Part shown: piece after piece, positions 11,994 to 53,628 of the stretch
Numbering within the stretch: position 1 is the first letter of the stretch
Layout of the letters: each line of letters begins with the position of its first letter
Sequence record: MN445185.1
Reading direction: 5' to 3' (one strand)
Source of the DNA: Escherichia phage vB_EcoM_EC001
DNA: 64,000 nucleotides
Made by a program: the position numbers and the translations under genes
The notes under the pieces: generated by a model
What the model was told of the DNA's origin: nothing
Database searches by the model: none
What the model saw: only the letters and a program-made list of their open reading frames with translations

Positions 11994-12035
11994 GGCTACC
12001 ACACGATCATATGTGTGGTAGCTTATTTTTTTGTT
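11994..12035 (+). terminator. Rho-independent terminator
   Basis: Stem ggctaccacac / gtgtggtagc, then a T-run. Confidence 0.65.
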
Positions 12036-12048
12036 TCTGGAGGCGTTA

Positions 12049-18143: not shown

Positions 18144-18569
18144 ATGGTAACCATAGACGTAGCTATCTCTATCGAGCTTCAACGCATCGGTGTAGGTACA
18201 CTAAAACTTCGTTATCGTGATTTACCGCATTACAACAAGATGTTTGATGTTGGGGTGATAAAGTTTTATAACCGGTACGGGCCAAGAGAACTATGTCTAT
18301 GGTTTGTCGAGTTAGCGATAACTTATGGCGAGTTTTATCATCCTAATGTACCGCATGTCGAACATGTGTCAAGAGGGCACCTGGAAACTTCCAGAGAGTT
18401 CTATCAGCGATTGTATGGCGCGATGGAGGAGTCCGCACCCATCGACTACGACGTACCACCTGAACTGTTATTAATCGACCATGAAGGAGAAGCCGGTGTC
18501 TATTTCATTACGGGGACTGACTATTCACGAGATTCAGAAATATTTACTCGAGGGCGGGAAACTGACTGA
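18144..18569 (+). CDS. Hypothetical protein
   Basis: ORF with weak SD. Confidence 0.55.
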   Translation: MVTIDVAISIELQRIGVGTLKLRYRDLPHYNKMFDVGVIKFYNRYGPRELCLWFVELAITYGEFYHPNVPHVEHVSRGHLETSREFYQRLYGAMEESAPIDYDVPPELLLIDHEGEAGVYFITGTDYSRDSEIFTRGRETD

Positions 18570-21643: not shown

Positions 21644-22441
21644 ATGTCTTTTACTTCAAAACAGAATCTGCTAAAACTCATCAACGAAGAGAATAAGATA
21701 AGCCCACCGCTTACCTTTGACGATGTTGATATCGGACTGCCGGAGGTTGTGTCAGTAGACGGTCGTGATTCGGAGGTGGTACTAACCTCGAAAATGCGCG
21801 GTGATGAAGGTACGCAAGTGATTGTGGACTACCATCGTCGTCCATTAGAGGACTACCTTACAGGCGATGTTGCCTTTGGCGATGAAGATGTGCATACCAC
21901 GCACGACTTACTCGCGGCGATTAACGAGCGTTTTAATCTGTCTATCTTACCTGAGGATATCGAAGATAACCCCATTGAAGGACAGACGCACACAGTCGTT
22001 GCTGTTGAAACTTCCCACGAGTGGAGAAGTCAAGCGGTCATCGAGCTGAAACCTGCTACACCTCTGGCAGAAGTAATAACCAATACAGAGTTGAGCGGTC
22101 TTCTGTACCCGGATCACCAGGACATCCAGTTGGGTCAGGCGTATATCTATTCGCGCGACATCGATTGTAGCCACATCTCTCGTTTCCTGAGCCTCTTAGC
22201 GGTCGGTATCGAAGTAGATGACACGGCGTTAGCAATCGAACTCAACAAATGTGTTCCTGAGATTTGGGTGGCTGAAGATACCCCATCCCCGTATAACTTG
22301 CGTGGTGCTACTGTCGTATTCGACGGCGTACCTGCAGACTTACCGGGAGCAAATACGGCGTTCGCGAAAGTCGTGTCAGTGCAACTGACCGATAAATGTA
22401 CGAACTTCCAGGGCAGCCTCAACTTACACTTTAACAACTAG
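21644..22441 (+). CDS. Paralog-family protein 1 (putative fibre/receptor-binding protein)
   Basis: Shares the family N-terminal domain and a C-terminal LHFNN-type ending with downstream paralogs. Confidence 0.65.
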   Translation: MSFTSKQNLLKLINEENKISPPLTFDDVDIGLPEVVSVDGRDSEVVLTSKMRGDEGTQVIVDYHRRPLEDYLTGDVAFGDEDVHTTHDLLAAINERFNLSILPEDIEDNPIEGQTHTVVAVETSHEWRSQAVIELKPATPLAEVITNTELSGLLYPDHQDIQLGQAYIYSRDIDCSHISRFLSLLAVGIEVDDTALAIELNKCVPEIWVAEDTPSPYNLRGATVVFDGVPADLPGANTAFAKVVSVQLTDKCTNFQGSLNLHFNN

Positions 22442-22451
22442 GAGGGTATAG

Positions 22452-23294
22452 GTGTCTATTTACGATAAGCCCTCGAAAGAGATGTTGTTAGATGCTATTA
22501 ACCGACAGAACGGATTAACGGCCAATCCACTCACATGGGAGCAGGTTGCAACTGGCTTCCCTGAGTCTGTCCAAACGCCTGGCGCTGACCGGAATACACG
22601 TGTACTCTTATACGGGTTGAACGGCAAGGGCTACAAAGGCAACGTTACGCTCGAATACGACCGTATCGAAATGGAAATTCTGTTCAGGAACGTAATACCG
22701 GTAGTCGTTGCCGACCCGGTAAATAAACTCTCTGAGTTGTTGCCGTTTCTGAATGCGAAATACGGCTTGTCTTTAGTTGCCGATGATATCGTTGACCAGT
22801 CAGTAAAAGATTTGGGAGAAAGCTGGTTAATCGATGTGACTATTAAGCCCGGTTGCTTGGCCTGGCAAGGTGGTTTCCGTTTACGCTTTGCGAAGTTCTT
22901 CCCGAACCTGGCGGATGTGGTGACGGATGTTGACCTCAGCGCAATTATCGCACCGTTCGTGGTTGCTAGTAAACCGCAGGCTGAATATGTGGCGTATGGT
23001 TACGATTGGACTGAACTGCAAAAACAGTTCACTACCGATTGGGCTTACAACCGTGCAATCACTGCAGCGGATGTTGAGTTGTTGAATGAAGTGGTGCCAT
23101 TAAAGTTTGCATATGTGACGGGGGCGAATGCGCAACCTGAACAAATTGCACTCCAAGGTGCACGATTTATGGGGATAACTTCAGTCACACCGAACGATAG
23201 TTACAACCCCGATTATCAGCGTGTGGCGATTATCAAGCTAGCTGCGGACAGCAACTACGCCGGTAATCTCATCCTTCATTATCTCCCGATATAA
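22452..23294 (+). CDS. Paralog-family protein 2
   Basis: GTG start with GGAGGG SD; family N-terminal domain (DRNT..Y.R). Confidence 0.65.
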   Translation: MSIYDKPSKEMLLDAINRQNGLTANPLTWEQVATGFPESVQTPGADRNTRVLLYGLNGKGYKGNVTLEYDRIEMEILFRNVIPVVVADPVNKLSELLPFLNAKYGLSLVADDIVDQSVKDLGESWLIDVTIKPGCLAWQGGFRLRFAKFFPNLADVVTDVDLSAIIAPFVVASKPQAEYVAYGYDWTELQKQFTTDWAYNRAITAADVELLNEVVPLKFAYVTGANAQPEQIALQGARFMGITSVTPNDSYNPDYQRVAIIKLAADSNYAGNLILHYLPI

Positions 23295-23304
23295 GGATTT
23301 TGAC

Positions 23305-24150
23305 ATGCCACTTTTAGCCACAGCTGAAAAGATTATTATCGCGGAGGTTAACGTCGAAAACAATCTCGACTTAAAAGTCGAGGATGTTGTTTTTGGTGTC
23401 CCTGCGATTCCAACGTCTGACGAAGACTTGGCAAAAGCTAACGGTCACAACGCGATGGTGCGTATTCAGGCATTGGCCACGGCTAATGCTATCGGTGCCA
23501 CTACCGTGTACTACGATCGTGTTGACTTCGCAGACATGTTTACCGATCCGGACGGGATTCAACCTTTACGTGTTCCTGCACGTCTCGATGCTGTTTACCA
23601 GATGCATGACGTGGTCGGGTTAATTAACCAGTATTACGGTCTCAGCCTTAAACCTGCAGATGTGGTGAATACCGAAATCGACAGGAAGACATGGCGTGTG
23701 GATCTGATTGCCACGCCCTCTTCTTTAGGTTGGATAGGGCAACAACAGGTACAGCTGTTACCAGGCGATGCGTTGCTTCCTGCAAACTTCGAACCCTTAA
23801 CAGTGATGCCTTACGAGTATCCGTATTTCAACATCAAGGTCGGTCAAGGTGCAGTTTATTCGTATCCCTGGCGCTTTGATAATTTCGCGGAGGAATTTCA
23901 ACGACTAGGTGCTGCGATAACCACAGAACGTCTGGCACAGATTCTCAAAACGGTCACCGGTGATAACTGGACAACATACCGTAACCCTATCGACTTTAAC
24001 CTTCGTGAAGCCGTCGTCGTCTATAACGGGCGTAACAAAGCGGAATTACCAACCAACCCAGCAGTCGACAACGTGCTGATTGTGGAGCTGTCGTTGTACT
24101 GTCTGAATTTTGGCGGGCGTTTGTATTTGCATTACAACGACCCTGATTAA
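23305..24150 (+). CDS. Paralog-family protein 3
   Basis: AAGGA SD; ends LYLHYNDPD. Confidence 0.65.
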   Translation: MPLLATAEKIIIAEVNVENNLDLKVEDVVFGVPAIPTSDEDLAKANGHNAMVRIQALATANAIGATTVYYDRVDFADMFTDPDGIQPLRVPARLDAVYQMHDVVGLINQYYGLSLKPADVVNTEIDRKTWRVDLIATPSSLGWIGQQQVQLLPGDALLPANFEPLTVMPYEYPYFNIKVGQGAVYSYPWRFDNFAEEFQRLGAAITTERLAQILKTVTGDNWTTYRNPIDFNLREAVVVYNGRNKAELPTNPAVDNVLIVELSLYCLNFGGRLYLHYNDPD

Positions 24151-24171
24151 TCCTGAGTAAAGGAAGTAAGA

Positions 24172-25083
24172 ATGAAACCTTTAAACAAAACGTCCGATAA
24201 GCTGGTTCTGGATTTTATTAATGAGAAAAACCCAGACGCAGAACTGGAACTTTCTAAAATAACGCTCGGCACACCGACCCCTATTACCGATGAAGGTGCT
24301 GATCGCAATACCAGCATGACCCTGACTGCGAAAAAGAACTCCGGGTACATCGGTACTCAGGACGTGACTTATAATCGCCTGGAAGGCGGTGCGCTGTTCC
24401 GTAATGTAACCGCATACCTCGACGTTAAACTGCCGAAAACCACCACCGACCTGCTGACGACCCTGAACACCCAATACGGATTGAAGCTGACCGAAGACGA
24501 TATCGTTCCGGCGGCTATTCCGGAAAATACCAACCCGCCGCTGACTAACCCGAACGATCCGGACCCAGCACCGGTTGACCACGTCATTACCTTCAAAGAA
24601 GACTGCTACGCTTATCTGGGCAGCATCCCGGTTAAAATCGGTGCTAAGCCTCAGGTTGGTGAACGTCTGAGTCTGGTGGTAACACAAACCAAGCTCGACG
24701 GCTTGGTTTACCCAGATGGTCCAAGCGAAGCGAAGGGTCAGGGCTACATCTACTCTTACGGTGTAGACTGCACAGCAATCGCAGCATTCCTGAAAGTACA
24801 GGCGAAAGGTGTTATCGCTGGCGACTCTGCATTCCCGGTTGAGCTGAATAAAGTTGTGCCGGAACTGTGGGTTGCATCTGATGAGCCTGCGGATTATAAC
24901 CTGAAAGGCGCTAACGTGTTGTACGTTGGTTCTACTACTGACGATGGCACTGCTTCAGGCGACGAACCTAAGAAACCGGTTGAAGGTGCAAACACTGCTT
25001 ACAACCAGGTTCTGCTGCTGCAGCTGGATGACACTCTGTGCACCAACTTCCAGGGTATCATGTACCTGCACTTTAATGCCTAA
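24172..25083 (+). CDS. Paralog-family protein 4
   Basis: AAGGAAG SD; ends MYLHFNA. Confidence 0.65.
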   Translation: MKPLNKTSDKLVLDFINEKNPDAELELSKITLGTPTPITDEGADRNTSMTLTAKKNSGYIGTQDVTYNRLEGGALFRNVTAYLDVKLPKTTTDLLTTLNTQYGLKLTEDDIVPAAIPENTNPPLTNPNDPDPAPVDHVITFKEDCYAYLGSIPVKIGAKPQVGERLSLVVTQTKLDGLVYPDGPSEAKGQGYIYSYGVDCTAIAAFLKVQAKGVIAGDSAFPVELNKVVPELWVASDEPADYNLKGANVLYVGSTTDDGTASGDEPKKPVEGANTAYNQVLLLQLDDTLCTNFQGIMYLHFNA

Positions 25084-25096
25084 TTAGGCCTCGCTG

Positions 25097-25136
25097 GGAG
25101 GAGGAAATCCTCCTCCTGGCTACTCCTTTCTTTTTT
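25097..25136 (+). terminator. Putative terminator
   Basis: Stem ggaggagg / cctcctcc, T-run about 10 nt downstream. Confidence 0.5.
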
Positions 25137-25152
25137 GGCCGAGGAGGCTATT

Positions 25153-25992
25153 ATGGCTTTATATAGTCTGTCTCAGCGACAATATCTGTACGATGCGATT
25201 AATGCCGAAAACCCGGATGCTGTGCTACCGATGGGTTTAGACAATGCTATCATCGGCACGCCGAAAGCAATCACACCGACAGCAAGCGGTGCCAATACTG
25301 AGATTATCATTCGTGGTCGTCAAGGTCGTGGCTATATCGGTCCTCAGACGTTCCGTTATAAGCGCTTGTCGCTGAACGACTTATTTAAGAACATGACACC
25401 TCAGGTAACTGCACCGAATGCCTACGGTTGGTTGAACGTGGAGTCGAAACGTACTGCGTTTGCGCAGAACCTGAACGGTCGTTATGGATTAAACCTGGTT
25501 GCAGATGATATCCCAGAACAATACGTTTATCTGAACGTAAACAACACGATGCGTATTAACGCTAGCTGTATCCAATACACTGGCAGCATCACCTTTATGT
25601 CTATCCGGGGTAAGAATAGCCTCGAAGACCTCGTGGTAAACGACATCTTGTTGGCTTTGAACCACCCTGCAGCAGCAAGCACTGGTAAGAAATACATGGG
25701 CTTCTTGACGTACGGGGAAGACTTTACTGACGAAGTGCAGGTTATGGCCTCGTTTAAGAACGGGCGAATGGACGTAGGAAGTAACTTTGATTTGGGTTAC
25801 ACGTCCAATCTGATGGCCACATTGGTCGCACGTGGGGTACCGTCGTTTGATCCGACGAACTGCACAATTACCCGCTACAAAACGAGTGAGTTGGCGACCG
25901 CCAATAAAGCGTACGATAACGTATTGCTGATTACCGGCATTCAGAACGACCCGAAAGTAATCGGCGAGTGTATGTTGCACTACAACAACTAG
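25153..25992 (+). CDS. Paralog-family protein 5
   Basis: ATG 25153 with GAGGAGG SD; track used TTG 25135; ends MLHYNN. Confidence 0.65.
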   Translation: MALYSLSQRQYLYDAINAENPDAVLPMGLDNAIIGTPKAITPTASGANTEIIIRGRQGRGYIGPQTFRYKRLSLNDLFKNMTPQVTAPNAYGWLNVESKRTAFAQNLNGRYGLNLVADDIPEQYVYLNVNNTMRINASCIQYTGSITFMSIRGKNSLEDLVVNDILLALNHPAAASTGKKYMGFLTYGEDFTDEVQVMASFKNGRMDVGSNFDLGYTSNLMATLVARGVPSFDPTNCTITRYKTSELATANKAYDNVLLITGIQNDPKVIGECMLHYNN

Positions 25993-26002
25993 GAATTAGC
26001 GA

Positions 26003-26890
26003 ATGGCTATTTATCAACCTTCTAAAGACGTCCTGTTGGCAGCAGTGAACGCACAGAACTCGCTTGCTGTTAAGATGACTGACATCATCTGGTCCTCGCC
26101 AAAGGACATCCGTGGTACGGAGAAGGAAACGCTGACTAACCGTAACACGCAAATTAAAATTACGGCAGATGGGGTAACGGGCTCTACCTGGTCGGGTAAG
26201 AAAAATGTCTTCTACAACCGCATGAAAGTCGAAGACTTGTTAGTGCTGATCGGTGACACGTTGGCGATCGGCCCATCCAACGAAACCTTGTATGCGGCCA
26301 TTCCTGGACTGAACCAACGTTACGGTTTTGTTCTGGAAGAAGCTGACCTGCAGGACGCAGATATCGAATGGAACGGTGATAAGACCGAAGGAACTGTGCG
26401 CGTTGTTGCACATCCGGAGTCTATCGGTTGGGTTGGACAGGCGACATTTAAAGTCGTGAAAGGTGATGAGTCGTTAGTCTCTGCAGTCACCACTAACGTC
26501 CTGACCGGTCTGAAATACCCGAACGGTCAGATGGGTTCCGAAAATGTTACTGCGGTCATTGCAGAGGTTTATTCCTACCCGTACAACTTCACCAAATACC
26601 GTGATACTCTGCTGGCATACACGCCAGGTATTCTGTCCGGACAGCCGTTGACGGATATGGTTAACATGCTGAAATATATTACGGGTACGGCATGGGTAGC
26701 GACCACCTCCGCTTCCTACGGTTTGGCGGGTGCGGAGGTTATCAGCGTTGGTCTGAATGACCCTGTTGCAATGCCGACAAACGCGAAGTACAAGTATGCG
26801 CTGGTGTTGAAACTGCCTGTTACCTGTACCACCATCGTCGGAACGTTGTATCTCCAGTTCAACGATCTGGACGATCCAAGCGAGGTATAA
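26003..26890 (+). CDS. Paralog-family protein 6
   Basis: Family N-terminal domain; ends LQFNDLDDPSEV. Confidence 0.65.
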   Translation: MAIYQPSKDVLLAAVNAQNSLAVKMTDIIWSSPKDIRGTEKETLTNRNTQIKITADGVTGSTWSGKKNVFYNRMKVEDLLVLIGDTLAIGPSNETLYAAIPGLNQRYGFVLEEADLQDADIEWNGDKTEGTVRVVAHPESIGWVGQATFKVVKGDESLVSAVTTNVLTGLKYPNGQMGSENVTAVIAEVYSYPYNFTKYRDTLLAYTPGILSGQPLTDMVNMLKYITGTAWVATTSASYGLAGAEVISVGLNDPVAMPTNAKYKYALVLKLPVTCTTIVGTLYLQFNDLDDPSEV

Positions 26891-26893
26891 TTG

Positions 26894-27721
26894 ATGATCA
26901 ACTATGCTAAGCCGTCAAACGAGTTGGTCTTTGACCTCATTAACCGGGATAACCCAAACCTACCTATTAAAGCGTCGCCGGCAAACTGCTACGTGGAGAA
27001 AGTGACGCAGGTTCCCGTTAATGCAGCTTCCAACAACCGCAATACGTCGGCACGCTTGCGCGGTATTCAGGGTTCCGGATTTCGAGACGCAATCACCGTT
27101 TACTACGACCGTGTGAACTTAGCGCGGTTATTGCCGTGGGGTCCTTCTGTTCAGGCGCAGTTCGTCACGTTTGACGCGCCCAACCTCCACTCAGCCTTTT
27201 CGGTGCTCTTGGATACTTACGGAGTAAACTTCTCTGCAATCGATATCTATAACCTCCCACTGGCGGGTCCCAATACCCCAAATTACACCAATACACAGAA
27301 CATCGTAGCGCTATCGACATCTCCGGCTTATATCGGTTCTGCGACGTTGCGTTATAACCGTGGTTTACCGGTACTAGATACTTCGGTGAAAACGGATGTC
27401 TTGAATGCGATTCAAGAGCCTATTTCACCGTCTCTCGGTAAGAAGTGTATTGATTTGTTGACGTACGGTATTGACTTTACCGCGTATAAAAACCTACTGA
27501 CAGTAGATGCTTCTGGCCTACCGCAGTGGGCTGGTTTGCGTAAGGTGTTGGATGACCTGGGTATTCCGAACTACGCGGGGCCACTGAACAGTAACACCGT
27601 TCAGGATGTGCCGACATCCACCGCTCAGTTCGCTAACAAATCGTACGACCGCGTGGTTGTCCAAACGGGTATCGATGAGGAAGGCGTGAAAGGCGTGGCG
27701 TACTACCACTATAACAGCTAA
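26894..27721 (+). CDS. Paralog-family protein 7
   Basis: GAGG SD; ends YYHYNS. Confidence 0.65.
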   Translation: MINYAKPSNELVFDLINRDNPNLPIKASPANCYVEKVTQVPVNAASNNRNTSARLRGIQGSGFRDAITVYYDRVNLARLLPWGPSVQAQFVTFDAPNLHSAFSVLLDTYGVNFSAIDIYNLPLAGPNTPNYTNTQNIVALSTSPAYIGSATLRYNRGLPVLDTSVKTDVLNAIQEPISPSLGKKCIDLLTYGIDFTAYKNLLTVDASGLPQWAGLRKVLDDLGIPNYAGPLNSNTVQDVPTSTAQFANKSYDRVVVQTGIDEEGVKGVAYYHYNS

Positions 27722-27726
27722 GTGTA

Positions 27727-27752
27727 GGGGCTCTTCGGAGCCCCCTCTTTTG
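27727..27752 (+). terminator. Rho-independent terminator
   Basis: Stem ggggctc / gagcccc with ttcg loop, then a T-rich tract. Confidence 0.6.
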
Positions 27753-27768
27753 GCGATGCGGAGTCCCT

Positions 27769-29181
27769 ATGCTATTTTACTCGAAGGAGTCGGCACTGCT
27801 TGTATACGACCAAGTCAATCGGGATAACCCTGATTTAGTTGTTAAGCTGACGCCGGCTATCGCTGCTTTAACCAGTGGCCCAACTTCAGTTACGTTAAAC
27901 CAACGTAACACCAAAGCTGTTTTCACCGGGTATCCAGGGACAGGTGTACAAGGTAATGTTACCGTGTACTACGACCGGATTAACCTGGCCTCTTTATTTA
28001 ATTTTGTGCCGACTGTGGCTATCAAAGATACAGTCTTAACGGTACGAGACGCGCTACCTGCAATAAACAACGCTTTGGGGCTTACATTAGTTGCTTCTGA
28101 TTTGCAGTCACCTGACGCAAGTTTACCTAAACCGAGCGCTTCGCCGCAGACGTTGAAATTAAATATCTCAGGTAATTGCCCTGCGTTTACAGGCAGCTTA
28201 ACGATACGTTATACCGTCCCGAGCGGTGCAATTTACCCCGATTCTGGACCTGGCCCTAAAACGTTGCTGCAAGGTAACACTATCGCGGGTTATTTCGGAA
28301 CAACCACAATTGCAGAGTTGTTTACACACTCTCAACTTCTTAATGCCACTATATCGGCCGGTGCGTTACCACCGGTACATTCTGGTGCCGAAGGTTGGTA
28401 CAAGTTCTTTTACCAGGGTAGGGTTATTTACCTTCCGATCAGTCCTGTCGCTAGCTCCATCTCCTGGAATACGTTATATACAAACGGACTCGTTTACGGA
28501 ACAGATGATAATGGTAAATACCCTGCGGCGACGCCCGTTAACCAGGGACGCATCATTAGCTTTACAGGCGCAGACAACAAAAGGTTTTACTTCCGTGTTC
28601 GTCTACCTAGTGCCGGGAAAGACCCATACGTCAGCGGCACCCCAACTGCCGCTGAGTTAGCAGGTAGTGAGTTTGAGATGTTCAACTTTCTGTATAATGG
28701 AACGTGGGACAAACCGATTAACAGTTACTGGACGCTGTTCTGTTTATTGAAAGATACACTGAAGACCAACGTCGCCAATCATCGCATGGCGACGTTGTCT
28801 GGAGCAAGTTGGACAAACTTAGAAAAATCATCGAGTGCGGGCAACTACTACTGGTTCCCGGTGCTGGAGTTGGTGGATAAGTCCACAGTTACCTTGGGTT
28901 TAGAAGATATCCATGGTGCGGTAGATTACAGTCTCCAACCGTGCAGCGTGTCCGCAGAAAACACATTTAGTCTCAAGCCGTTAGTGCTCGGTAATCCGGA
29001 TACTACCGATTTCGAACCGGTAGTTGTTACTTCAGAAAACAGTTTCGCACTGCATCCGCCTGCTTTAATGCTGCCGAAGACAGTCGACTTCCAACCTATT
29101 GCGGCTACCGCTGAAATGTATACGCCCCCTGACAAGACAACGTTAACGTCTCTTAACGGTGAACTGGACGGCTTTAAGTAG
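27769..29181 (+). CDS. Fibre-module protein A1 (family N-domain, GPGP motif, C-terminal NGELDGF)
   Basis: GGAG SD; paralog of 31138-32634. Confidence 0.65.
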   Translation: MLFYSKESALLVYDQVNRDNPDLVVKLTPAIAALTSGPTSVTLNQRNTKAVFTGYPGTGVQGNVTVYYDRINLASLFNFVPTVAIKDTVLTVRDALPAINNALGLTLVASDLQSPDASLPKPSASPQTLKLNISGNCPAFTGSLTIRYTVPSGAIYPDSGPGPKTLLQGNTIAGYFGTTTIAELFTHSQLLNATISAGALPPVHSGAEGWYKFFYQGRVIYLPISPVASSISWNTLYTNGLVYGTDDNGKYPAATPVNQGRIISFTGADNKRFYFRVRLPSAGKDPYVSGTPTAAELAGSEFEMFNFLYNGTWDKPINSYWTLFCLLKDTLKTNVANHRMATLSGASWTNLEKSSSAGNYYWFPVLELVDKSTVTLGLEDIHGAVDYSLQPCSVSAENTFSLKPLVLGNPDTTDFEPVVVTSENSFALHPPALMLPKTVDFQPIAATAEMYTPPDKTTLTSLNGELDGFK

Positions 29182-29192
29182 AGGTATCATCT

Positions 29193-30191
29193 ATGTCTTT
29201 TACTTTGCGTTGGAAAAATCCAAACGTAATCCCTACGGTAGTAAAAATCTACCGTGACGTTAAAGATATCACACCAAGCGCTTTGCCTGAACCGATTGCA
29301 ACGCTCTCAAATGGCGAGACAGAATGGCGTGATGCCACCGCCAAACCAGGCGCAATCTATTATTACCTTCTAACGGTAACCGCCAACGGTAAAACAGTAG
29401 CGTCGTCTAGCCAGAAATATACTGTTGAGGTAAAACGCGGGATAGGCCCAATGACTATTCTAAACGGTAACGACCGTTTAGGGTTTATGGGTGAGGTTCC
29501 TTACGACGAACAATGGCTTCCGTCGCAAATGCCACCTGCATTTTTGGCGATGTTCCCTAATCTATTAACCGATCGCGTGGCGTTGTATAAATTTACCCGA
29601 AACGGGAAGATCTATTACATGCTATCTAACACGTCGCAGTTCCCGAATACGCCTGTGGACTGGGCTTCCCTCTATCAAGCTGGTTTAGTCTATGGTACGG
29701 GCGATGCTGGCCCAGAGAACGGCCATGGAACGCTACCGGCCACTCCACAAGACGCTAAGATAGTCCACAAAGGGGATACGTACATCATGCGTCTTCCTCG
29801 CGGCCTGACGATGTCTAGCGAGCCTCCTGCGTATCCTTTCGTAGCTGACTATAATGGGAAAACCCATGATGAAATCGCTTCTCTAACCAACCCGTGTGAG
29901 TATAACGATTTACTTTACACGATGGTTAACGAGGTGCCGTGGAAACAGCGTTGGGCTAACTGGGCAACGAACAGTTATACTTTTCTGGGGCAGGGTACTT
30001 TGGGAACCTCGGCAACGTATTTCGGCGGTGGTGTTCTCTGTATGGAACACGACACCACGGAAGACCGTGTGCTCCATCGTGGTATTTTTAACAATGCCGG
30101 CGGAACACCCGTATCCGCGATTCAGCGTATAAACTATTTATCACCCACCACGAAAGGGCGTTACTACCCTATCTTTGAACTGGTCGAGTAA
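29193..30191 (+). CDS. Fibre-module protein B1 (beta-sandwich-like N-terminus)
   Basis: GAGG SD; paralog of 32647-33636. Confidence 0.65.
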   Translation: MSFTLRWKNPNVIPTVVKIYRDVKDITPSALPEPIATLSNGETEWRDATAKPGAIYYYLLTVTANGKTVASSSQKYTVEVKRGIGPMTILNGNDRLGFMGEVPYDEQWLPSQMPPAFLAMFPNLLTDRVALYKFTRNGKIYYMLSNTSQFPNTPVDWASLYQAGLVYGTGDAGPENGHGTLPATPQDAKIVHKGDTYIMRLPRGLTMSSEPPAYPFVADYNGKTHDEIASLTNPCEYNDLLYTMVNEVPWKQRWANWATNSYTFLGQGTLGTSATYFGGGVLCMEHDTTEDRVLHRGIFNNAGGTPVSAIQRINYLSPTTKGRYYPIFELVE

Positions 30192-30200
30192 GGGGCAGTC

Positions 30201-31124
30201 ATGACTATACGGTTAAGCTGGCCGTCCCAAGCCAGCAAAGGTCTTACCGCGATTGAAATCTACCGCAAGGAAGGTTGGAACGCAACAATCGACGTTTACA
30301 ATCCAGGCGCACCCCACGCAACTTTATCGGGCAACGCGGTAGAGTTCGTAGATAATATCGATACCCTGACGAAGAACACAACCTATCGTTATTGGGTAGC
30401 TGCTGTGAAGGACAGTGAACGACTTATCGGCAATCCGATTACGCAAGGATTCTATCCGGACACCGGGCCGGGTCCGCAAACTATTTTGCGTGGTGACTGG
30501 GCTTCAGGTTATTTCGGTACAGTACCGAATACAGAGTTCTTTAATACTGCCGAGTTAAAACTCATGTTAACTGCGCAGCAGGGAAACATGTTTGTCTACG
30601 ACCCTCAGGAATGGCACAAGTTTATTTTCCGTGGGAGAATTGTCTTCTTCCCAGCGACGATGCATTCGAAAACCAACTCGGTACAAATGGCGTATCAGTA
30701 CGGTATGATGTACGGGACCGATGATGTCGGAAGTATTGTTCCGCAGGGAGCCACAGCGACTAAACAAGATTGTAAGGTCACGAAGGATGGTCGTACGTAC
30801 CGTATCCGATTACCTTACGCAGTCCCGTACGACGCTGTTCTCTCAGGACAGGATTACAACAACGGTGAATGGCGAAACACAATGGGCCGTTTGTATCCTG
30901 TCGCTGCACAGTTCGCAGCCCTCGGTCTTGGTGCGATTGACTCACTTGCAAGACAAGGCGCGACTGCGCAGCCGAATGAGTCAGGTGCCGCTGTATTAGC
31001 TCCTTTGTGGAGCAACAATATATTCGCTTATGCGTATGGCACCGTGCCTATGGGGATTAGTAACACCGCAGGTGTCGGGAACTCGGCCACGATATTCTTT
31101 GCTTTTGAATTAGTCTTACCGTAA
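30201..31124 (+). CDS. Fibre-module protein C1
   Basis: AGGGG SD; paralog of 33639-34538; shares the DTGPGPQ..GYFG motif with A-type proteins. Confidence 0.65.
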   Translation: MTIRLSWPSQASKGLTAIEIYRKEGWNATIDVYNPGAPHATLSGNAVEFVDNIDTLTKNTTYRYWVAAVKDSERLIGNPITQGFYPDTGPGPQTILRGDWASGYFGTVPNTEFFNTAELKLMLTAQQGNMFVYDPQEWHKFIFRGRIVFFPATMHSKTNSVQMAYQYGMMYGTDDVGSIVPQGATATKQDCKVTKDGRTYRIRLPYAVPYDAVLSGQDYNNGEWRNTMGRLYPVAAQFAALGLGAIDSLARQGATAQPNESGAAVLAPLWSNNIFAYAYGTVPMGISNTAGVGNSATIFFAFELVLP

Positions 31125-31137
31125 CGGAGTAAAAGCC

Positions 31138-32634
31138 ATGGGGTTGTATACAGAACCTTCAATGGAACTGCTCTGCCAACAAATTGTGCGTGACAATCCC
31201 GGTTTAGCAGGAAAAATCACCGCTGACTCCATTGGGGTCAGGGGTGTTCCTGTTGCGAGAAACGTTAACGGACGAAACACACAGATTACGTTGGTAGGAA
31301 AACCCGGTAAAGGATTTGCTGGGGAAATAACGGTATATTACGACCGGTTGAATCTGGCCAGTCTGTTCAAGTCTGGCCCGAATATGGTGAGTATTCCACG
31401 TAGCGCACAAACCCATGCGGAAGCGTTACCGGCGTTCAATGAATTGAACGGGTTGAACTTAACCGCGAGTGATATCACCAGTCCAAACGTTGCATTAATG
31501 AAATACGCTACGCCGGAAACTGTAACTCTGACGGCGCACGCTAACTCCTTGTGCTATACCGGGTCATGCAAGATGACCTATGTTTACGAACCGATTGCGA
31601 TGTATCCGAAGTCGGGTCCTGGGCCAAAAGGATTAATGGCTGGTAATGAGTTATACGGATTCTTTGGGCTGGTAAGCGCGGAAGAGTTATTCACATCTGA
31701 TGAAATGGTGTATGCACTCTATAACGGCACCAACTGGCCTAACCGCTACGCTATCAAGTGGCTCAAATTCTTTCTGAATGGGGCGGTAGTGTTTGTTCCG
31801 ACCCGTGCGATTTGCAACGTTACCTGGGCAGACCTGTACAACAATGGTGCAATATTTGATTCCGGAGACGCAGGACCTCGCCCGAAGTCGACTTACACAC
31901 CTGTCGATGTTGAACAGTTGAAATACATGGTAAAACGGGATGATGAAGGAACGCATTATTTCAGAATGTCTATCCCGTATTACACCGAGAACGCCGCCGC
32001 GCCTGATTGGAGTAAACCGCCGTCAATCACCTCTATCCTGTCACTGACCAGCAAATTGGGGTCGGTGAACGTATATGGGGAGTGGGGAACTCTTAGCACG
32101 ACTGATGCTAACTTCCTGGATTACGTGTGGTTACGACACCAGTTCGGTGCCGACCAAGCGTATTACCAGTCTATCAGTGGGAGCTATCGTTCATACACCT
32201 ACATCTACACCTCTTCTGGCTTTTGGCCAATCCTGGAGATGTTTGATGTTGCCAATGAACCTGTGCCGTTGATTGACGAAGGTGCAGAACTGACATGGGC
32301 ACCGTCCGTGGTTACTCTGACGGACATCTACCAAAATGAATCGCTTCGTGTGGTGCCTATTACGGAAACCTCCGCTGCAGCGAATCCACGTCCGTTAGTT
32401 TTCAACACCGACAACACCGAAACTGCCACCCCTGCCTGGCTGCGGGAAGCGTCATCAGACTCACCACGTCCTCTGCTTGCCACGACGGACAATGATGAAC
32501 GTGCATATTCCGTCGCGGTAACAGGCATGGCTAGCGTTAAGATTAGACCGATTATTCTCACGACTGACCAAATCGCCCAACCTTCAAAAATTACTCTGGG
32601 CGATACTAACGGTGAGTTGGATGGATTCCAATAA
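31138..32634 (+). CDS. Fibre-module protein A2
   Basis: GGAG SD; ends NGELDGFQ. Confidence 0.65.
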   Translation: MGLYTEPSMELLCQQIVRDNPGLAGKITADSIGVRGVPVARNVNGRNTQITLVGKPGKGFAGEITVYYDRLNLASLFKSGPNMVSIPRSAQTHAEALPAFNELNGLNLTASDITSPNVALMKYATPETVTLTAHANSLCYTGSCKMTYVYEPIAMYPKSGPGPKGLMAGNELYGFFGLVSAEELFTSDEMVYALYNGTNWPNRYAIKWLKFFLNGAVVFVPTRAICNVTWADLYNNGAIFDSGDAGPRPKSTYTPVDVEQLKYMVKRDDEGTHYFRMSIPYYTENAAAPDWSKPPSITSILSLTSKLGSVNVYGEWGTLSTTDANFLDYVWLRHQFGADQAYYQSISGSYRSYTYIYTSSGFWPILEMFDVANEPVPLIDEGAELTWAPSVVTLTDIYQNESLRVVPITETSAAANPRPLVFNTDNTETATPAWLREASSDSPRPLLATTDNDERAYSVAVTGMASVKIRPIILTTDQIAQPSKITLGDTNGELDGFQ

Positions 32635-32646
32635 GAGGTAACGACA

Positions 32647-33636
32647 ATGGCTTTTACAATTCGTTGGACGAACAATAACCCTGGGGCTTCGACCGTGAAG
32701 CTGTACCGCGACACCAAACCTCTGGTGCGTACAGCATTACCTGAACCTCTGGCAACGTTCACTAACGGGGAAACTGAGTATACTGACCGAACAGCGATAC
32801 TGGGGACAACGTATTACTACATGACCACTGTGACAGTGGGAAGCCGAACACTGTTCAGTCCGCAGAAATCAATTCTGATTCAGAACCGTCGCGGTATCGG
32901 CATCGTGGCTCCACAGTACGGTGATGACCGCTTTGCGTATTACGGGTACGTGGCGTACGGTGAATTACCTAGCGCGGGTGATTATCCGCCAGGGTTTATG
33001 GCCCTTTCTGGATATGACCCAACTGTTAAGCCGGGCTTGATGAAGTTCCAGCTAGACGGTAAAATTCTGTATCTGTTTAGTGGTCTTCGTGTGAACGGCA
33101 ACACACCGTATAGCCGTGATGCGATTTATAACGCGTGTTTGCTGTACGGTGTGGCGGGACCTGGTCCGGAAGGCGGTCATGGCGATTTACCTGACGTTGA
33201 CCAGGCTGGGGAGTTTACGTGGTTGGGTGACCGCTATCGGATGCGCCTGCTGCGCGGTTTAACACTCGACAGTGAAAGCCCGGTCATGACACTCGACGCA
33301 CAGTGGAACGGTAAACTCCATGACGAGTCGCCGTATACTGCCGATAGCGAATACAACCGACTCATCTATGGGATAAGTAGCTGGTTCCCAGAAAAGAAAA
33401 AAGTGATGTCCCTGATAAAGTGGTCGAACACCAGCATATTCGGAAGTGGATCGCTGGTGGCAGGCCGTGGGGCGCATTGTCAGGAGTTTGACCCAGACAG
33501 TAAGTTGGGGCTGACGCGCGGATGGGCGGCGGCGGATTCCACTGATACCGTGGATAACCTCCAGCGTATACAACATGTCCCTGGTGCGACCGTGGGCGGT
33601 ATTTGGATTCCAGTAATCGAGCTTATCGAGGATTAA
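32647..33636 (+). CDS. Fibre-module protein B2
   Basis: GAGG SD. Confidence 0.65.
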   Translation: MAFTIRWTNNNPGASTVKLYRDTKPLVRTALPEPLATFTNGETEYTDRTAILGTTYYYMTTVTVGSRTLFSPQKSILIQNRRGIGIVAPQYGDDRFAYYGYVAYGELPSAGDYPPGFMALSGYDPTVKPGLMKFQLDGKILYLFSGLRVNGNTPYSRDAIYNACLLYGVAGPGPEGGHGDLPDVDQAGEFTWLGDRYRMRLLRGLTLDSESPVMTLDAQWNGKLHDESPYTADSEYNRLIYGISSWFPEKKKVMSLIKWSNTSIFGSGSLVAGRGAHCQEFDPDSKLGLTRGWAAADSTDTVDNLQRIQHVPGATVGGIWIPVIELIED

Positions 33637-33638
33637 TC

Positions 33639-34538
33639 ATGCCTATTACATTACACTTTGCACAACGGAAGCCACAGGCGCTCGATAACATCGAAATCTA
33701 TCGCAAGACGCCGGGCAACGCCACCATTGATGTTAATGCACCGGGAACGCCTCTGGCAACCCTTCCGGGTGACGCTACATCGTACGAAGACAACGCTGTG
33801 GAAAACAACACCACTTACCGTTATTGGATAGCTGCGGTTAAAGACGGTGAGCGTGTCTTCAACACCCCTACCGCCCAAGGGTTCTTTTTAGACACCGGGC
33901 CTGGCCCCCAGAAGCTGTTATACGGCGACTGGCACGCTGGATACTTTGGAACAGTAACGCCAGCAGAGTTATTCACTAACACGGAACTGAACAGCCTCGT
34001 GGTGAATATGTTCAGTTCCGCCGTTGGTGCCTGGCATAAGTTCATTTACAAAAACCGTATTCTGTTTATGTCCGATAACTCGATAATATACGCTAGCCCG
34101 CAGTTCATTTATAACCAGGGGCTGATGTACGGCCAGGATGGCAACGGATATGTACCGGGCTGGGCTACTGCACGTAACCAACGCCGCACGGTGACGAAAA
34201 ACGGTTACGAATACGTGGTGCGCTTGCCGTATTTGTTCGACTACAAATTCTGGACGTCTTACGTTGGAAGCGGTAACACTGAGTTGTATCTCGACGGTGA
34301 GTGGTTTAACACCTTCGCGCGCCTGTACAACTACAGTGGGCAGTTTCCGCGCTTTGACGACATTCCGGTCGGTCCAATCGATTCGGTTACTGCCCAACAA
34401 TCTGCATTCTTTGCGGCTATGAATAACACGTCCAGTCAGTGGTACAACCGTCCACCTTACCCTGAGTCGCCGTCGTGGAGTAACTACGGTACCACTACAA
34501 TACGCTCCATTGCGGTACTTGAACTCGTTCTGCCTTAA
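33639..34538 (+). CDS. Fibre-module protein C2
   Basis: ATG 33639 with GAGGA SD; track start 33603 overlaps B2. Confidence 0.65.
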   Translation: MPITLHFAQRKPQALDNIEIYRKTPGNATIDVNAPGTPLATLPGDATSYEDNAVENNTTYRYWIAAVKDGERVFNTPTAQGFFLDTGPGPQKLLYGDWHAGYFGTVTPAELFTNTELNSLVVNMFSSAVGAWHKFIYKNRILFMSDNSIIYASPQFIYNQGLMYGQDGNGYVPGWATARNQRRTVTKNGYEYVVRLPYLFDYKFWTSYVGSGNTELYLDGEWFNTFARLYNYSGQFPRFDDIPVGPIDSVTAQQSAFFAAMNNTSSQWYNRPPYPESPSWSNYGTTTIRSIAVLELVLP

Positions 34539-34586
34539 CAGGAGACTTCATGGGGTTGTATAGCGCACTTTACCATAACAGCTAAA

Positions 34587-34617
34587 AATAGGCCCTTCGG
34601 GGCCTATTTTCTTTTTT
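34587..34617 (+). terminator. Rho-independent terminator
   Basis: Stem aataggccc / gggcctatt with ttcg loop, then a T-run. Confidence 0.75.
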
Positions 34618-34628
34618 AGGACGTTGCA

Positions 34629-35948
34629 ATGATCAACTATAACAAACCTGTCATGCAACTGGTTTGGGATCAGATTAATCGTGATAACCCGCAGCTCAAG
34701 AAACCGCTCAACGCAACCAACGTGGCGTTATTACAAGGTCCTTTAACCAATGCCTTGCGCGATGGCCGCAACAGCCGTATCGTGGTAAACGGATTACAGG
34801 GTGGTGGTTACAGCGGTAAGATGGACATCTACTACGACCGCTTAAACCTTTCGCAGTATTTTAAAGGCGTCAGCGTACCGGTTAAAGTACCTTATCGGGC
34901 GACGGTCTACCGCGACATCATCGACCGAATTTCCGCAGCTTGTGGGTTGGTGCTTACTGCTGACGATTTAACGTATCCTGACAGCCAGTTTGCAATGATC
35001 ACTGTGGCAACGGGCGATCGGACGGTGGCGATTAAATCGGATAACCCCGCATTCACGGGTTACATTCCTATTAGCTTTATTCGTGAAGAGCCCAGCTTCG
35101 CCGACTTGTACCACATCACCGAAACTGGGGCTTGGGAACCCATGGATGTTTACAGCACGGTCTATCGACTCGACTGGAGCATGTACACCCAACAGATAAT
35201 CAATATCCCAATGGGTACCCCGCTGCGACTAAACAGTAACTCGTACATGACCCAGTTTATCGCGGCGCTGTCGGCATGGTCGGGCATCCCGTTCACTATC
35301 GGTAATGCTGCTACTGATAACCCGTATGACCTCTATGGGTATGTCGCTACACGCAATAACAACCCAGGCTTAGACCCTGATATGCGTGGGGAGTACAAAT
35401 ACTGCGTGAAGTTGACGCCGCCTGAGGATATGGGTAATCTCCGCCGTCCGTTCTTCTTGCACTTTGGTCCGAAAAATAACGTGGCCTATTTGGCGCAGGA
35501 AGAGGACGTCGAACGTTATGCGCGTTACATGAGGTTCCGGGAAACCAGCCCAAATTCGATGAGCGTCACGTTGTATCAAAACGAGTACGTGTTGACTCGG
35601 GCAGAATCGCCTGAAACAGCGGATGATTTAACGGGTTCCCCGTATGGCACTCGATACTGTACCGGGAGTATTCGACGGCTGATGCAACACGCGTTTCCGA
35701 CCGAAGAGATGTTCCAAGAAAGTATTGCTAACCGGCGTCGGGTACTGTACCACACTGCTTACACCACCACGACATCAGCTACTACTTACCAGGGACTATA
35801 CCGTAACGGATACCAATCCAAACAAATGACGAGCCTCTACTCGAATTACTGTAACTATTTCATCTATTACGACCCAAGCAAAGGCGGCTATATGGTCTAC
35901 AGTCCATATAGCAAAACTGCCCCGGTCCCTTGGTATCCAGCGCTATAG
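34629..35948 (+). CDS. Paralog-family protein (A-type N-domain, distinct C-terminal module)
   Basis: N-terminus MINYNKP..INRDNP as in 26894; C-terminal YYD..Y.K.AP.PW shared with 35963. Confidence 0.65.
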   Translation: MINYNKPVMQLVWDQINRDNPQLKKPLNATNVALLQGPLTNALRDGRNSRIVVNGLQGGGYSGKMDIYYDRLNLSQYFKGVSVPVKVPYRATVYRDIIDRISAACGLVLTADDLTYPDSQFAMITVATGDRTVAIKSDNPAFTGYIPISFIREEPSFADLYHITETGAWEPMDVYSTVYRLDWSMYTQQIINIPMGTPLRLNSNSYMTQFIAALSAWSGIPFTIGNAATDNPYDLYGYVATRNNNPGLDPDMRGEYKYCVKLTPPEDMGNLRRPFFLHFGPKNNVAYLAQEEDVERYARYMRFRETSPNSMSVTLYQNEYVLTRAESPETADDLTGSPYGTRYCTGSIRRLMQHAFPTEEMFQESIANRRRVLYHTAYTTTTSATTYQGLYRNGYQSKQMTSLYSNYCNYFIYYDPSKGGYMVYSPYSKTAPVPWYPAL

Positions 35949-35962
35949 ACTAAGGTGTCACC

Positions 35963-38131
35963 ATGTCATACACTCCCGATTTAGTGGCGACCGTGATTCG
36001 GTCGCTCAACCGTAAAAACGCGGTCGCCAAAGCAGTAGACCCCGCTAACGTACGCCTGGTGTCCGTGGCGCATCGTGACGAAAAAACCCTAGACGTCACA
36101 CTGACAGGGGGTCCGGGGTATTCAAGTTACGGTCAAATTACGGCCCAAGTCACGAAGCAAAATATTGCTGATTATTTCGCCAAGGTTAAGTTGGATGCCA
36201 TTCCCACTTGTGCGTCCATCCACGAACTGTTGCCGCATTTAGACACTCTACTAGGGATTACCTTTTTAACCGACGACTTTGAAGACCTGCCTATCACTTG
36301 GACAAACAATGCTGCGCGCGTCACGTTCCAGGCGAAACAGACAAGTCTTATCTGGTACGGCAGCCAAACGCTAGATGTGATAAACGGTGACGTGGATATC
36401 AACACTGTCTACACTGTTACCAATATCATTCTCACGCTAAAGGCTGCGAATAAACAGCAGTGGATTAACTTCTACTCTAATGCAACCAAACGGATCGTGG
36501 ATCTTGATAAAGTCGATGTCAGCGCCCCGATGTCCCCGGAGGATATAGGCCAAACCTCTGCGTATAACAGCGTCGTAGCATTGACCGCTAGACCGGGGAG
36601 CGGGATGTTTGGAACGAAGTATGTGTTCTTCTCACGTAACAAACTCGAGACATATGCAGGCAAAACCACATACGTCCCGGATGATTTCACCGGTAGCCTG
36701 CACGATGCTCTGGCCATCGAGACACTCGGCATTCGGAGCGTTTTTGATGTAAACGAAATTGCTCCTGTAGAGAACCTGGCAGGCGAGTGGCCAAGACAAG
36801 TGCAATTGGCACCCGTAGAGGGTTCGTACAAAGTCATGGGCAACGCCACGTTGAATGTGGCACGCTATCAAGATAACGAGCAAACCCTTAACCTGAACTA
36901 CACAACTACGTCGCAACTTTCGGACAGCTACTGGGCCACAACGTTGATCAACCATGCGGCGTGCGGGCGTTTGTTTGTTAACGTGACCGTAGATGCAGGG
37001 GCTTTCGTTTATCGCGACAGCAACCTGAAACCGACGTTCGTTATCGACGAATTGCCGCAAATTGGCGAGGTGGTTTGGAACTTCGTTAACCGGGGAACCA
37101 TTCTTGGTCGTGGTGGTTCTGGTATGGTCTACTCTATGCCTGCGAACACATCAGCGGACGGAGCTGACGCAATCCACATTAGCGATACCTTCCGTGGCAA
37201 AGTCACCATCGAAAACTACGGCACCATCGCCGGTGGTGGGGGTGGGGGCGACTACTATGCGTTTAGCACCACCAAGATCGGTGGAGCTGGTGGTGCGCCT
37301 CTCGGGCCAGGCGCGGCGGTGCCCAGCGGCACCAATAACCGTAACGGCTTAGCTGGGTCCCGTGACAAAGGCGGTGCTACCCAGTTAGTCGTCGAGCAAT
37401 TTACCGGCTACCAGAGTCGCTACTATGGCGGTCCGGGTGGGGATTGGGGCCAGCCGGGACGATATACAGCGTTCGAGCAATGGAACACCCCGGCTACCGG
37501 CTCGCCAGTCTATGTCTACGGTCGTGAAGACGGGATGTCATGGACTCGCCCTGGGATGGCAGGCGAAGCTGTCGGTGGGAATAAAAGTATCGTCAACTGG
37601 GTATCCGTCGGAACGGTGAAACCGAATGTTACCGACGAGTACCAAGAGTTCCTCGACTACCTCGCAGTTTTAGATGCCAATCGACTGGCCAGTGCGGATG
37701 GGATAGATAAAGTCACCGACCCAACCAAGCCTGTAGTTGTGGAGTTCTTAGGTACGATTATTTCAGGTACGCTGTTCAAAAAGCAAAACATACCCGGCGG
37801 TTTGGTGGGAACACCATACGGCGATGCTATAGCCAATTTACCGAGCACCACATTGTTTGGTATCATGGCACACAGTGTATCTGAGTTTGATATTGTGCAC
37901 GACACTTGGCGTTACAACCGTGCGGTAATGTTCACGCTAAAACCCGCGCCTACCGGGACGATTAACCTCGCTGTGGAACGCAACCGGGTGAAATCGGCTA
38001 CCAGTAGTGCACCGGTGGAGAAGTTCTATGTCGATCGCTTCGTGTATTACGATGCGTATCTCGGTAAGATGATGGAATGTAATCCGTATACCAAATCCGC
38101 CCCTAAACCGTGGGTGCGGCCAAAGAAATAG
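35963..38131 (+). CDS. Paralog-family protein with Gly-rich region (722 aa)
   Basis: AAGGTG SD; family N-domain; GGGGGDYY..GGAGGAPLGPG tract. Confidence 0.65.
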   Translation: MSYTPDLVATVIRSLNRKNAVAKAVDPANVRLVSVAHRDEKTLDVTLTGGPGYSSYGQITAQVTKQNIADYFAKVKLDAIPTCASIHELLPHLDTLLGITFLTDDFEDLPITWTNNAARVTFQAKQTSLIWYGSQTLDVINGDVDINTVYTVTNIILTLKAANKQQWINFYSNATKRIVDLDKVDVSAPMSPEDIGQTSAYNSVVALTARPGSGMFGTKYVFFSRNKLETYAGKTTYVPDDFTGSLHDALAIETLGIRSVFDVNEIAPVENLAGEWPRQVQLAPVEGSYKVMGNATLNVARYQDNEQTLNLNYTTTSQLSDSYWATTLINHAACGRLFVNVTVDAGAFVYRDSNLKPTFVIDELPQIGEVVWNFVNRGTILGRGGSGMVYSMPANTSADGADAIHISDTFRGKVTIENYGTIAGGGGGGDYYAFSTTKIGGAGGAPLGPGAAVPSGTNNRNGLAGSRDKGGATQLVVEQFTGYQSRYYGGPGGDWGQPGRYTAFEQWNTPATGSPVYVYGREDGMSWTRPGMAGEAVGGNKSIVNWVSVGTVKPNVTDEYQEFLDYLAVLDANRLASADGIDKVTDPTKPVVVEFLGTIISGTLFKKQNIPGGLVGTPYGDAIANLPSTTLFGIMAHSVSEFDIVHDTWRYNRAVMFTLKPAPTGTINLAVERNRVKSATSSAPVEKFYVDRFVYYDAYLGKMMECNPYTKSAPKPWVRPKK

Positions 38132-53533: not shown

Positions 53534-53628
53534 TGCAAACACTCCTAATCTGTAATAAAACGGAGACCGCCCTCCCAATAACGGAAGGGCGGTTTACCTA
53601 CGGACTACCCGCCCGTAGGCAGTCCGTC

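Follow-up and report, generated by a model that had tools for sequence, protein, structure and literature searches.

Introduction

Why does Escherichia phage vB_EcoM_EC001 carry the same set of three genes twice in succession, and what do the proteins of the two sets do for the virion? The question is raised by a stretch of 64,000 nucleotides (nt) from this phage (sequence record MN445185.1), referred to here as the window, in which positions 27769-34538 hold two neighbouring units, or cassettes, of genes of types A, B and C. By its similarity to known genomes the phage is an SPN3US-type giant phage, Chimalliviridae-like and of the genus Seoulvirus, and the compared region is 98.9% identical to positions 121518-128287 of Salmonella jumbo phage SPN3US. 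The proteins A1, B1, C1, A2, B2 and C2 correspond to gp145-gp150 in the original SPN3US numbering, with protein identities of 98.1-99.3%. They combine a DUF7941 N-domain, a domain similar to FN3 and a third domain, called X here, as listed below; some of the assignments come from our own hidden Markov models (HMMs).

27769..29181, + strand: A1, 470 amino acids, gp145 ortholog; residues 1-150 DUF7941 N-domain, ~155-376 X, 380-470 predicted disordered tail
29193..30191, + strand: B1, 332 amino acids, gp146 ortholog; FN3-like domain at ~1-80, then X; own HMMs FN3 (3e-23) and CLEC_BC (5e-42), and phrog_1062 (1.7e-56); no match to a Pfam family
30201..31124, + strand: C1, 307 amino acids, gp147 ortholog; FN3-like domain at 1-81, X at 82-307
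31138..32634, + strand: A2, 498 amino acids, gp148 ortholog; DUF7941 N-domain, X and tail; PF25613 at 104.8 bits and own HMMs
32647..33636, + strand: B2, 329 amino acids, gp149 ortholog; FN3 and X; matches by blastp, PHROG and own HMMs
33639..34538, + strand: C2, 299 amino acids counted from the ATG at 33639, gp150 ortholog; FN3 and X

The six open reading frames (ORFs) were confirmed at these coordinates, with intergenic gaps of only 2-13 nt, and agree with annotated genes of SPN3US, E. coli phage vB_EcoM_Lh1B (Lh1B) and Salmonella phage SPLA3. A TTG at 33603, upstream of the C2 start, is unused in the annotated relatives. Cassette 1 measures 3,356 base pairs (bp) and cassette 2 measures 3,401 bp.

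Paralogy among these genes is already known, having been published in 2016-2017, and the present work is a refinement of a known feature. In SPN3US the genes belong to paralog family B, which comprises gp83, gp138-154, gp160/161 and gp237 (Thomas et al. 2016, PMC5105663; Ali et al. 2017, PMC5694885). In the parts of these two papers that were searched the family is treated as one group, found by PSI-BLAST, and the suggestion is made that no single phage genome may hold a larger paralog family than the 17-gene run gp138-154. The same parts of PMC5105663 and PMC5694885 hold no description of an A-B-C substructure, of FN3 or lectin-like domains, of a C-terminal motif or of copy-number variation between phages.

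An old duplication of a three-gene cassette

The pairwise similarity of the cassette genes was assessed by blastp and by Smith-Waterman alignment against 200 shuffles, from which z-scores were calculated. The sequence-only reading of the window had taken the genes to be pairwise paralogous in the same order, and had proposed a comparison of per-pair identities. All three pairs are strongly significant by blastp: A1 and A2 share 29.6% identity over 507 columns (E 1e-61), B1 and B2 38.1% over 333 columns (E 6e-62), and C1 and C2 46.0% over 261 columns (E 4e-63). The Smith-Waterman scores of the three pairs are 514-540, compared with 37-42 for shuffled sequences (standard deviation 5.5-6.6), which gives z = 75-87. 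The best match of every cassette gene within the window is its positional counterpart in the other cassette, so that the order A-B-C is repeated. Most cross-type pairs are also similar by blastp, at E 1e-5 to 1e-20, the pairs A2-B2 and B2-C1 not being significant. The X domain is shared across types, with z = 33 for A1-C1, z = 17 for A1-B1 and z = 21 for B1-C1.

At the DNA level almost nothing of this similarity is left. Only two short matches are found between the units, 68% over 172 nt and 74% over 62 nt, and the codon-aligned DNA identity is 43-53%. Synonymous sites between the paralogs are saturated: the proportion of synonymous differences (pS) is 0.79-0.82, and third-position identity is 28-35% where 25% is expected. 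The saturated synonymous sites and the near absence of DNA similarity mean that the duplication is old and is not an artefact of assembly. With pS this high, the synonymous rate (dS) is undefined and the ratio of nonsynonymous to synonymous rates (dN/dS), whose analysis the sequence-only reading had proposed, cannot be computed between the paralogs, so comparisons between orthologs were used instead.

These sequence comparisons confirm that a three-gene cassette of ~3.4 kb was duplicated en bloc long ago and that the copies have since diverged. That the block was copied as a whole follows from the collinearity of the units, the strong pairwise homology and the mirrored trees of the A, B and C genes described below. 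The claim of an ancient, diverged duplication of a 3.4-kb cassette thus holds, given the saturated sites, the lengths of the units and the mirrored trees.

Gain and loss of cassettes

The number of cassettes varies among related phages. Three A-B-C cassettes are present in SPN3US and Proteus phage 7 as well as in the Erwinia phages phiEaH2 and Huxley, and one is present in Cronobacter phage CR5. "A-B-C twice", as the locus had been summarised, is therefore true for this genome, whereas the array of SPN3US and most relatives consists of three cassettes and the stub of a fourth A gene. The unannotated SPN3US stub of 30 codons, MGFYSSTALELLCRLIQRDNPQHAGRISWS and then a stop, follows cassette 3 at 18150-18242 of the compared SPN3US stretch (JN641803), and its presence means that the SPN3US reference array has itself already undergone an earlier deletion.

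A remnant of the third cassette is also present in the window.

34550..34585, + strand: stub of A3, a dead ORF of 11 codons, identified from the junction alignment with SPN3US, Lh1B and SPLA3 and from translations

The first 19 nt of A3 (ATGGGGTTGTATAGCGCAC, 6 codons, MGLYSA) remain at 34550-34568, after C2. They are fused via a 9-bp microhomology, ATAGCGCAC (34560-34568), to the sequence that lies downstream of the fourth-A stub in SPN3US. By the junction alignment the loss of the third cassette amounts to a 3,456-bp deletion relative to SPN3US. Lh1B has an identical deletion junction. SPLA3 also has two cassettes, but its crossover lies elsewhere, with the A4 stub and the first ~80 nt of A3 as the partners. 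Since the junction shared by Lh1B and the window differs from that of SPLA3, the third cassette was lost at least two times independently. Among 33 phage records that match the junction region, only Lh1B and SPLA3 span the junction in one piece, and they are the only ones to share the two-cassette state. A comparison of the window DNA with itself revealed no long repeats between the cassettes that could serve as a recombination substrate, beyond the 5' ends of the A genes.

Repeats can collapse during assembly, but the probability that the two-cassette state is a collapsed three-cassette genome is practically negligible: the cassettes share less than 70% DNA identity, in short stretches only, which makes collapse impossible, the junction is a clean 9-bp microhomology, and Lh1B, which was isolated and sequenced independently, has the identical junction. 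In about a dozen SPFM records (LR535901-LR535917) the region was matched only as 19-40 short pieces, which cover 36-55% of the query at 97.5-99.6% identity. These fragmentary matches look like poor sequence quality of the deposits rather than biology.

The history of the cassettes was followed in neighbour-joining trees (Kimura distances, 300-500 bootstraps), of which only unrooted groupings were used. Rooting the per-gene trees on CR5 was dropped because the CR5 cassette groups with Erwinia cassette 2 in a joint tree of B and C genes. In the A, B and C trees the first cassettes of SPN3US, Huxley and phiEaH2 are orthologs with 97-100% support. The group formed by the cassette-1 orthologs of the three genera together with SPN3US cassettes 2 and 3 has 99-100% bootstrap support in A, B and C alike. 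SPN3US cassettes 2 and 3 are sisters (94% in A, 99% in B, 52% in C), and Erwinia cassettes 2 and 3 fall in other lineages. Judged from these groupings, the three SPN3US cassettes are not one-to-one orthologs of the three Erwinia cassettes, and the pattern is one of birth-and-death evolution. The split between cassette 1 and cassettes 2 and 3 may be older than the split of the genera, or may only appear so through faster evolution.

The joint unrooted B/C tree has distinct clades of B (98%) and C (95%), each with one gene of Pseudomonas phage Noxifer. The two clades mirror each other internally, with CR5 and Erwinia cassette 2 grouped at 92% and 98%. The separate clades and their mirrored structure indicate that B and C split before the cassettes were copied and that the block was copied more than once.

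Both remaining cassettes are kept as coding genes under purifying selection. In comparisons with orthologs in SPN3US, Proteus phage 7, Lh1B and SPLA3, dN/dS is 0.08-0.47 for the six cassette genes and 0.04-0.51 across all 15 array genes compared. One divergent patch was observed in SPLA3 (OR413581), at ~2298-4585 of the compared stretch and opposite 26894-29181 of the window. The last short DUF7941 gene is 79% identical and A1 88%, where the flanking genes have 96-99%, and dS within the patch is 0.5-1.3. This points to an allelic exchange, or recombinational replacement, in SPLA3.

Domains of the cassette proteins

The order of the domains is identical in all cassettes of the window, SPN3US, phiEaH2, Huxley and CR5, as judged with our own HMMs. 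Pfam family PF25613 (DUF7941) matches A1 with 109.3 bits and A2 with 104.8 bits (gathering cut-off 27), covering only positions 1-153 of the 276 in the profile. The N-domain of the A proteins has the fold found in phiKZ gp127. The Pfam scan found no DUF7941 match in B1, B2, C1 or C2, and these belong to the published paralog family B only because they share the X domain with A. The N-terminal parts of B and C are similar to FN3 in fold and in profile, and the model of C1 has a predicted local distance difference test score (pLDDT) of 94 with FN3 matches.

The tail of A, residues 380-470, has pLDDT < 50 and is predicted to be disordered. It contains two or three short repeats of the PKTVDF.PI type. 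In A1 there are two such repeats and the end is LTSLNGELDGFK; in A2 there are three repeats of an RP(L/I) type and the end is LGDTNGELDGFQ. The ending ...KT.L(S/T)..NGEL.GF is conserved in nearly all A-type proteins. The same ending is found at the C-terminus of the gp160 orthologs of SPN3US, phiEaH2, Huxley and CR5, which represent four genera. In a tblastn search with the gp160 homolog for this motif, nearly all matches fell in the SPN3US/Erwinia/CR5 group and none in Goslar or phiKZ, so that any relation of the NGEL.GF motif to the Goslar linker is unproven.

The X domain has ~220 residues, is common to A, B and C, begins with GPGP...GYFG and ends with W.PVLELV. The sequence-only reading had seen a D[ST]GPGP...GYFG motif in A- and C-type proteins; the two types do share it, with KSGPGP...GFFG in A2. 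The remark understated the similarity, as the shared domain is far longer than the motif and is also found in B. The other motifs quoted are present as well, with 3 residues and not 2 between IEIYRK and NATIDV. X varies most in its C-terminal third. It is probably a ligand-binding domain, with a putative C-type-lectin-like fold. In a Pfam scan of 132 family members there was no sequence membership in the curated lectin-fold families (Lectin_C, FGE-sulfatase, DUF1566 and others). Searches of the PDB with the full B/C profile or with A1 alone gave FN3 matches only or none.

The X family is large, with 829 representative clusters at E < 1e-3. In phage records it hardly occurs outside the phiKZ-like jumbo phages, and in large homologs X is joined with Laminin_G_3, Kelch and bacterial Ig-like domains. 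Ralstonia phage RSL2 has an X protein with a C-terminal tail and no DUF7941, followed by two FN3+X genes. Pseudomonas phages PA1C and Noxifer have the same kind of X protein followed by three FN3+X genes. These sets without DUF7941 indicate that the gene unit is older than its fusion to DUF7941.

Location in the virion and possible role

All nine cassette proteins of SPN3US, gp145-153, have been found in virions by mass spectrometry. Their number of peptide-spectrum matches (PSM) per mass ranges from ~1/3 of that of the 12-copy portal up to about equal, and is roughly alike within a cassette. Among the most abundant virion proteins is SPN3US gp160, for which Ali et al. give >300 copies per virion (PMC5694885). 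In Goslar, DUF7941 proteins polymerise head-to-tail into filaments, some of them have carbohydrate-binding domains, and gp22 alone forms long filaments; phiKZ gp127 has been located in the outer baseplate (bioRxiv 10.64898/2026.04.21.720040; PMC13250141).

The reading that we favour, with moderate confidence, is that the surviving tandem-amplified cassettes encode low-copy lectin-like surface adhesins that ride on a DUF7941 polymer and display their X domains outward. Protein A would enter the polymer through its N-domain plus the gp160-like C-terminal docking motif. The X domains, exposed on the virion exterior, would bind host surface glycans or proteins. B and C may contribute another two lectin-like domains, perhaps through contact with A, although such an association is a guess. 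As the cassette was amplified and diverged, the range of ligands held by the virion would have widened. The "fibre" label of the sequence-only reading is plausible for these proteins: the adhesin-looking domains and the DUF7941 filaments of Goslar suit it, but the presence of the SPN3US orthologs in tailless heads at a capsid-like level does not, and sets them apart from ordinary tail-dependent fibre proteins.

Several observations weigh against the adhesin proposal. X belongs to no Pfam family among the 132 family members scanned, a PDB sequence search with an X-only profile gave nothing at E up to 10, and no canonical sugar-binding motif was identified in X. B and C have neither an anchoring domain nor the docking motif. 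In heads of a tail-tube mutant of SPN3US, the head/wild-type PSM ratio of the orthologs, gp155 included, is 0.89-1.67, with 1.39 for the major capsid protein and 0.004-0.05 for tail proteins. A fibre anchored at the baseplate fits poorly with this presence in tailless heads, which was at first taken as a sign of internal head proteins.

The literature is in conflict about where the polymer is located, the phiKZ and Goslar data placing it at the baseplate and the SPN3US proteomics associating it with the head. The tailless-head data can be read in three ways: as a head-borne mesh, as free filaments that co-purify with heads, or as internal proteins. The last is ranked least likely of the three because of the types of domain and the lack of protease processing. 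The conflict is sharpest for gp155, which has a GP38 adhesin domain yet is found in tailless heads (head/wild-type 0.89).

Could the cassettes encode conventional tail fibre proteins of the baseplate, as the sequence-only reading implied, each A-B-C set being one fibre type? This is unlikely. The SPN3US orthologs gp145-153 are tail-independent, with head/wild-type ratios of 1.06-1.67, whereas the fibre candidates gp168-169 have 0.004-0.013. Structure prediction gave the cassette proteins no trimeric shaft, coiled-coil or beta-helix segment, and the recognised fibre and baseplate paralogs are those of another family, family C (gp168-170).

An internal head location was first suggested for the abundant members of SPN3US family B. 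The cassette products would then be packaged with the DNA and possibly ejected with it, and the duplication would diversify an internal scaffold or ejection role unrelated to host binding. The proteins gp138-155 and gp160 are present in tailless heads of two mutants, purified in caesium chloride (CsCl), at a level like that of the capsid and portal proteins, and Ali et al. label gp141, gp143 and gp160 'Head ejection?' (PMC5694885). We nevertheless regard an internal role as quite improbable. The domains are extracellular or adhesive in type (FN3, the lectin-like fold, GP38 in the neighbouring gp155), the homologous N-domain of phiKZ gp127 has been resolved on the exterior of the baseplate, and filaments such as those of Goslar gp22 could co-sediment with heads or stick to them.

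The idea that B and C are glycosyl hydrolases and the cassette a set of depolymerases is highly improbable: such annotations exist for B/C homologs of Proteus phage 7 (MT679221) and MET_P1_082_240 (OQ383623), and the FN3-like N-domain resembles FN3 modules of pectate lyases and xylanases, but no Pfam catalytic domain matches any of the 132 family members, and the similarity to enzymes is limited to the non-catalytic FN3 module, with PDB matches that cover residues 5-80 only and X making up the remainder. The label probably stems from this module, which is shared with pectate lyases and xylanases.

Diversification of the type found in diversity-generating retroelements was also considered and rejected. 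There is no template/variable repeat pair in 21000-42000, only 37-44 nt repeats of conserved motifs. For SPN3US, Lh1B and SPLA3 the annotation of the homologous regions lists no reverse transcriptase, a statement that concerns annotation only, the window not having been scanned.

To return to the adhesin proposal, a more specific form of it can be put forward tentatively. A, B and C of one cassette may be a single three-chain adhesin with three different lectin-like domains, tethered by the two polymerisation ends of A to a head-borne DUF7941 mesh, in which case gain or loss of a cassette would change the hosts that can be caught. We consider this unlikely as it stands; if true, it would give nucleus-forming jumbo phages a modular system of host capture carried on the head.

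What is new here is the anatomy of the cassette, its repeated block duplication and two independent losses, the assignment of FN3 and putative lectin-like folds, and a lead to a docking motif. The repeated unit is a conserved gene set, a triplet in the SPN3US group and a simpler version in distant relatives, and it comes and goes as a whole between phages that are nearly identical. The natural two- and three-cassette phages, the candidate docking motif and soluble X domains provide handles on the conflict between head and baseplate. These refinements could help the study of host recognition by chimalliviruses.

Surrounding genes

The cassettes lie within a longer array of related genes.

21644..27721, + strand: seven short DUF7941 N-domain genes, ~265-303 amino acids each, orthologs of SPN3US gp138-144
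27727..27744, + strand: terminator-like GC hairpin, GGGGCTCTTCGGAGCCCC then a T-rich tail, between the last short DUF7941 gene and A1; pattern match only, from a consensus scan
34585..34620, + strand: terminator-like hairpin with a T run, an 11-pair stem AAAATAGGCCC/GGGCCTATTTT then CTTTTTT, preceding the gp154 homolog; pattern match only
34629..38131, + strand: gp154 and gp155 homologs; gp154 with DUF7941 N-domain and other domains, 439 amino acids; gp155 of 722 amino acids
35963-38131, + strand: the gp155 homolog, with DUF7941 N-domain and Pfam GP38 tail-fibre adhesin domain (68.6 bits, E 9e-19)
41033..41581, + strand: gp160 homolog, a small DUF7941-like protein with the A-tail motif at its C-terminus (KFQPV...KTDLSTTNGELGGF)

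The 15 consecutive genes at 21644-38131 all carry a DUF7941 N-domain and/or a lectin-like domain; the corresponding run in SPN3US is 18 genes, gp138-155. The orthologs of gp138-144 share their N-domain with A1 and A2, and a Pfam scan of one of them gave a match over the full length of the DUF7941 profile. The hairpin at 27727..27744 is the upstream edge of the six-gene block, and the downstream hairpin is conserved in SPN3US, Lh1B and SPLA3. Pattern matches as they are, the two hairpins flanking the six genes suggest that these may form one transcription unit. The window gp160 homolog is ~89% identical to that of SPN3US, lower than the neighbouring genes, and has an extra GGEGHAGM after the motif where SPN3US has a single V. 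Far from the array, an isolated ORF at 12031-12588 (+) encodes a DUF7941 N-domain (own HMM, 8e-11) and may be the counterpart of SPN3US gp122, a proposed family B candidate that was not detected in wild-type virions.

Other genes of the neighbourhood were noted. Three very large ORFs at 48350-61485 (-), of 1742, 1376 and 1237 amino acids, match the published masses of SPN3US gp168, gp169 and gp170 (188, 149 and 135 kDa), an assignment made by size and synteny only. The gp168-170 proteins, similar to phiKZ gp131 and known as 'paralog family C', are generally accepted as candidates for baseplate and fibre proteins. Two adjacent ORFs at 42838-45073 (-) are syntenic with radical SAM genes of Lh1B, SPLA3, phiEaH2, Huxley and CR5, a pair that is conserved beside the structural array in several genera. 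In the Erwinia phages an annotated exopolysaccharide (EPS) depolymerase, another host-interaction gene of the same neighbourhood, lies directly upstream of the short DUF7941 genes (3513-5330 in phiEaH2 and 3549-5351 in Huxley, in the compared stretches). SPN3US-type phages have no annotated EPS depolymerase upstream of gp138, where gp134-137 are small hypothetical ORFs.

Relation to known systems

The nearest known system is SPN3US family B, which consists of the same genes and differs in having three cassettes rather than two. Compared with the DUF7941 filament proteins of Chimalliviridae, Goslar gp22 and gp23 and phiKZ gp126 and gp127, the A proteins described here are without the DUF7941 C-domain, and B and C are without any part of DUF7941. 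The family has been placed at the baseplate in Goslar and phiKZ, whereas the SPN3US orthologs co-purify with tailless heads.

Proteins with a C-type-lectin fold include Mtd of Bordetella phage, TvpA of Treponema, the C-domain of Legionella Lcl (DUF1566), intimin and invasin, and FGE-like domains. Compared with these, X is larger (~220 amino acids) and has no membership at the sequence level. The diversity of X comes from gene duplication and not from mutagenic retrohoming, unlike that of diversity-generating retroelement systems.

Tandem arrays of paralogous receptor-binding genes are not limited to this group: among large phages, the Vi01-like ones have multiple tailspikes and the Rak2-like ones have fibre arrays. 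Like these arrays, the cassettes place several diverged binding proteins side by side, an arrangement thought to widen host recognition. Unlike them, the repeated unit consists of three genes, and its proteins are small, apparently non-enzymatic and of low copy number.

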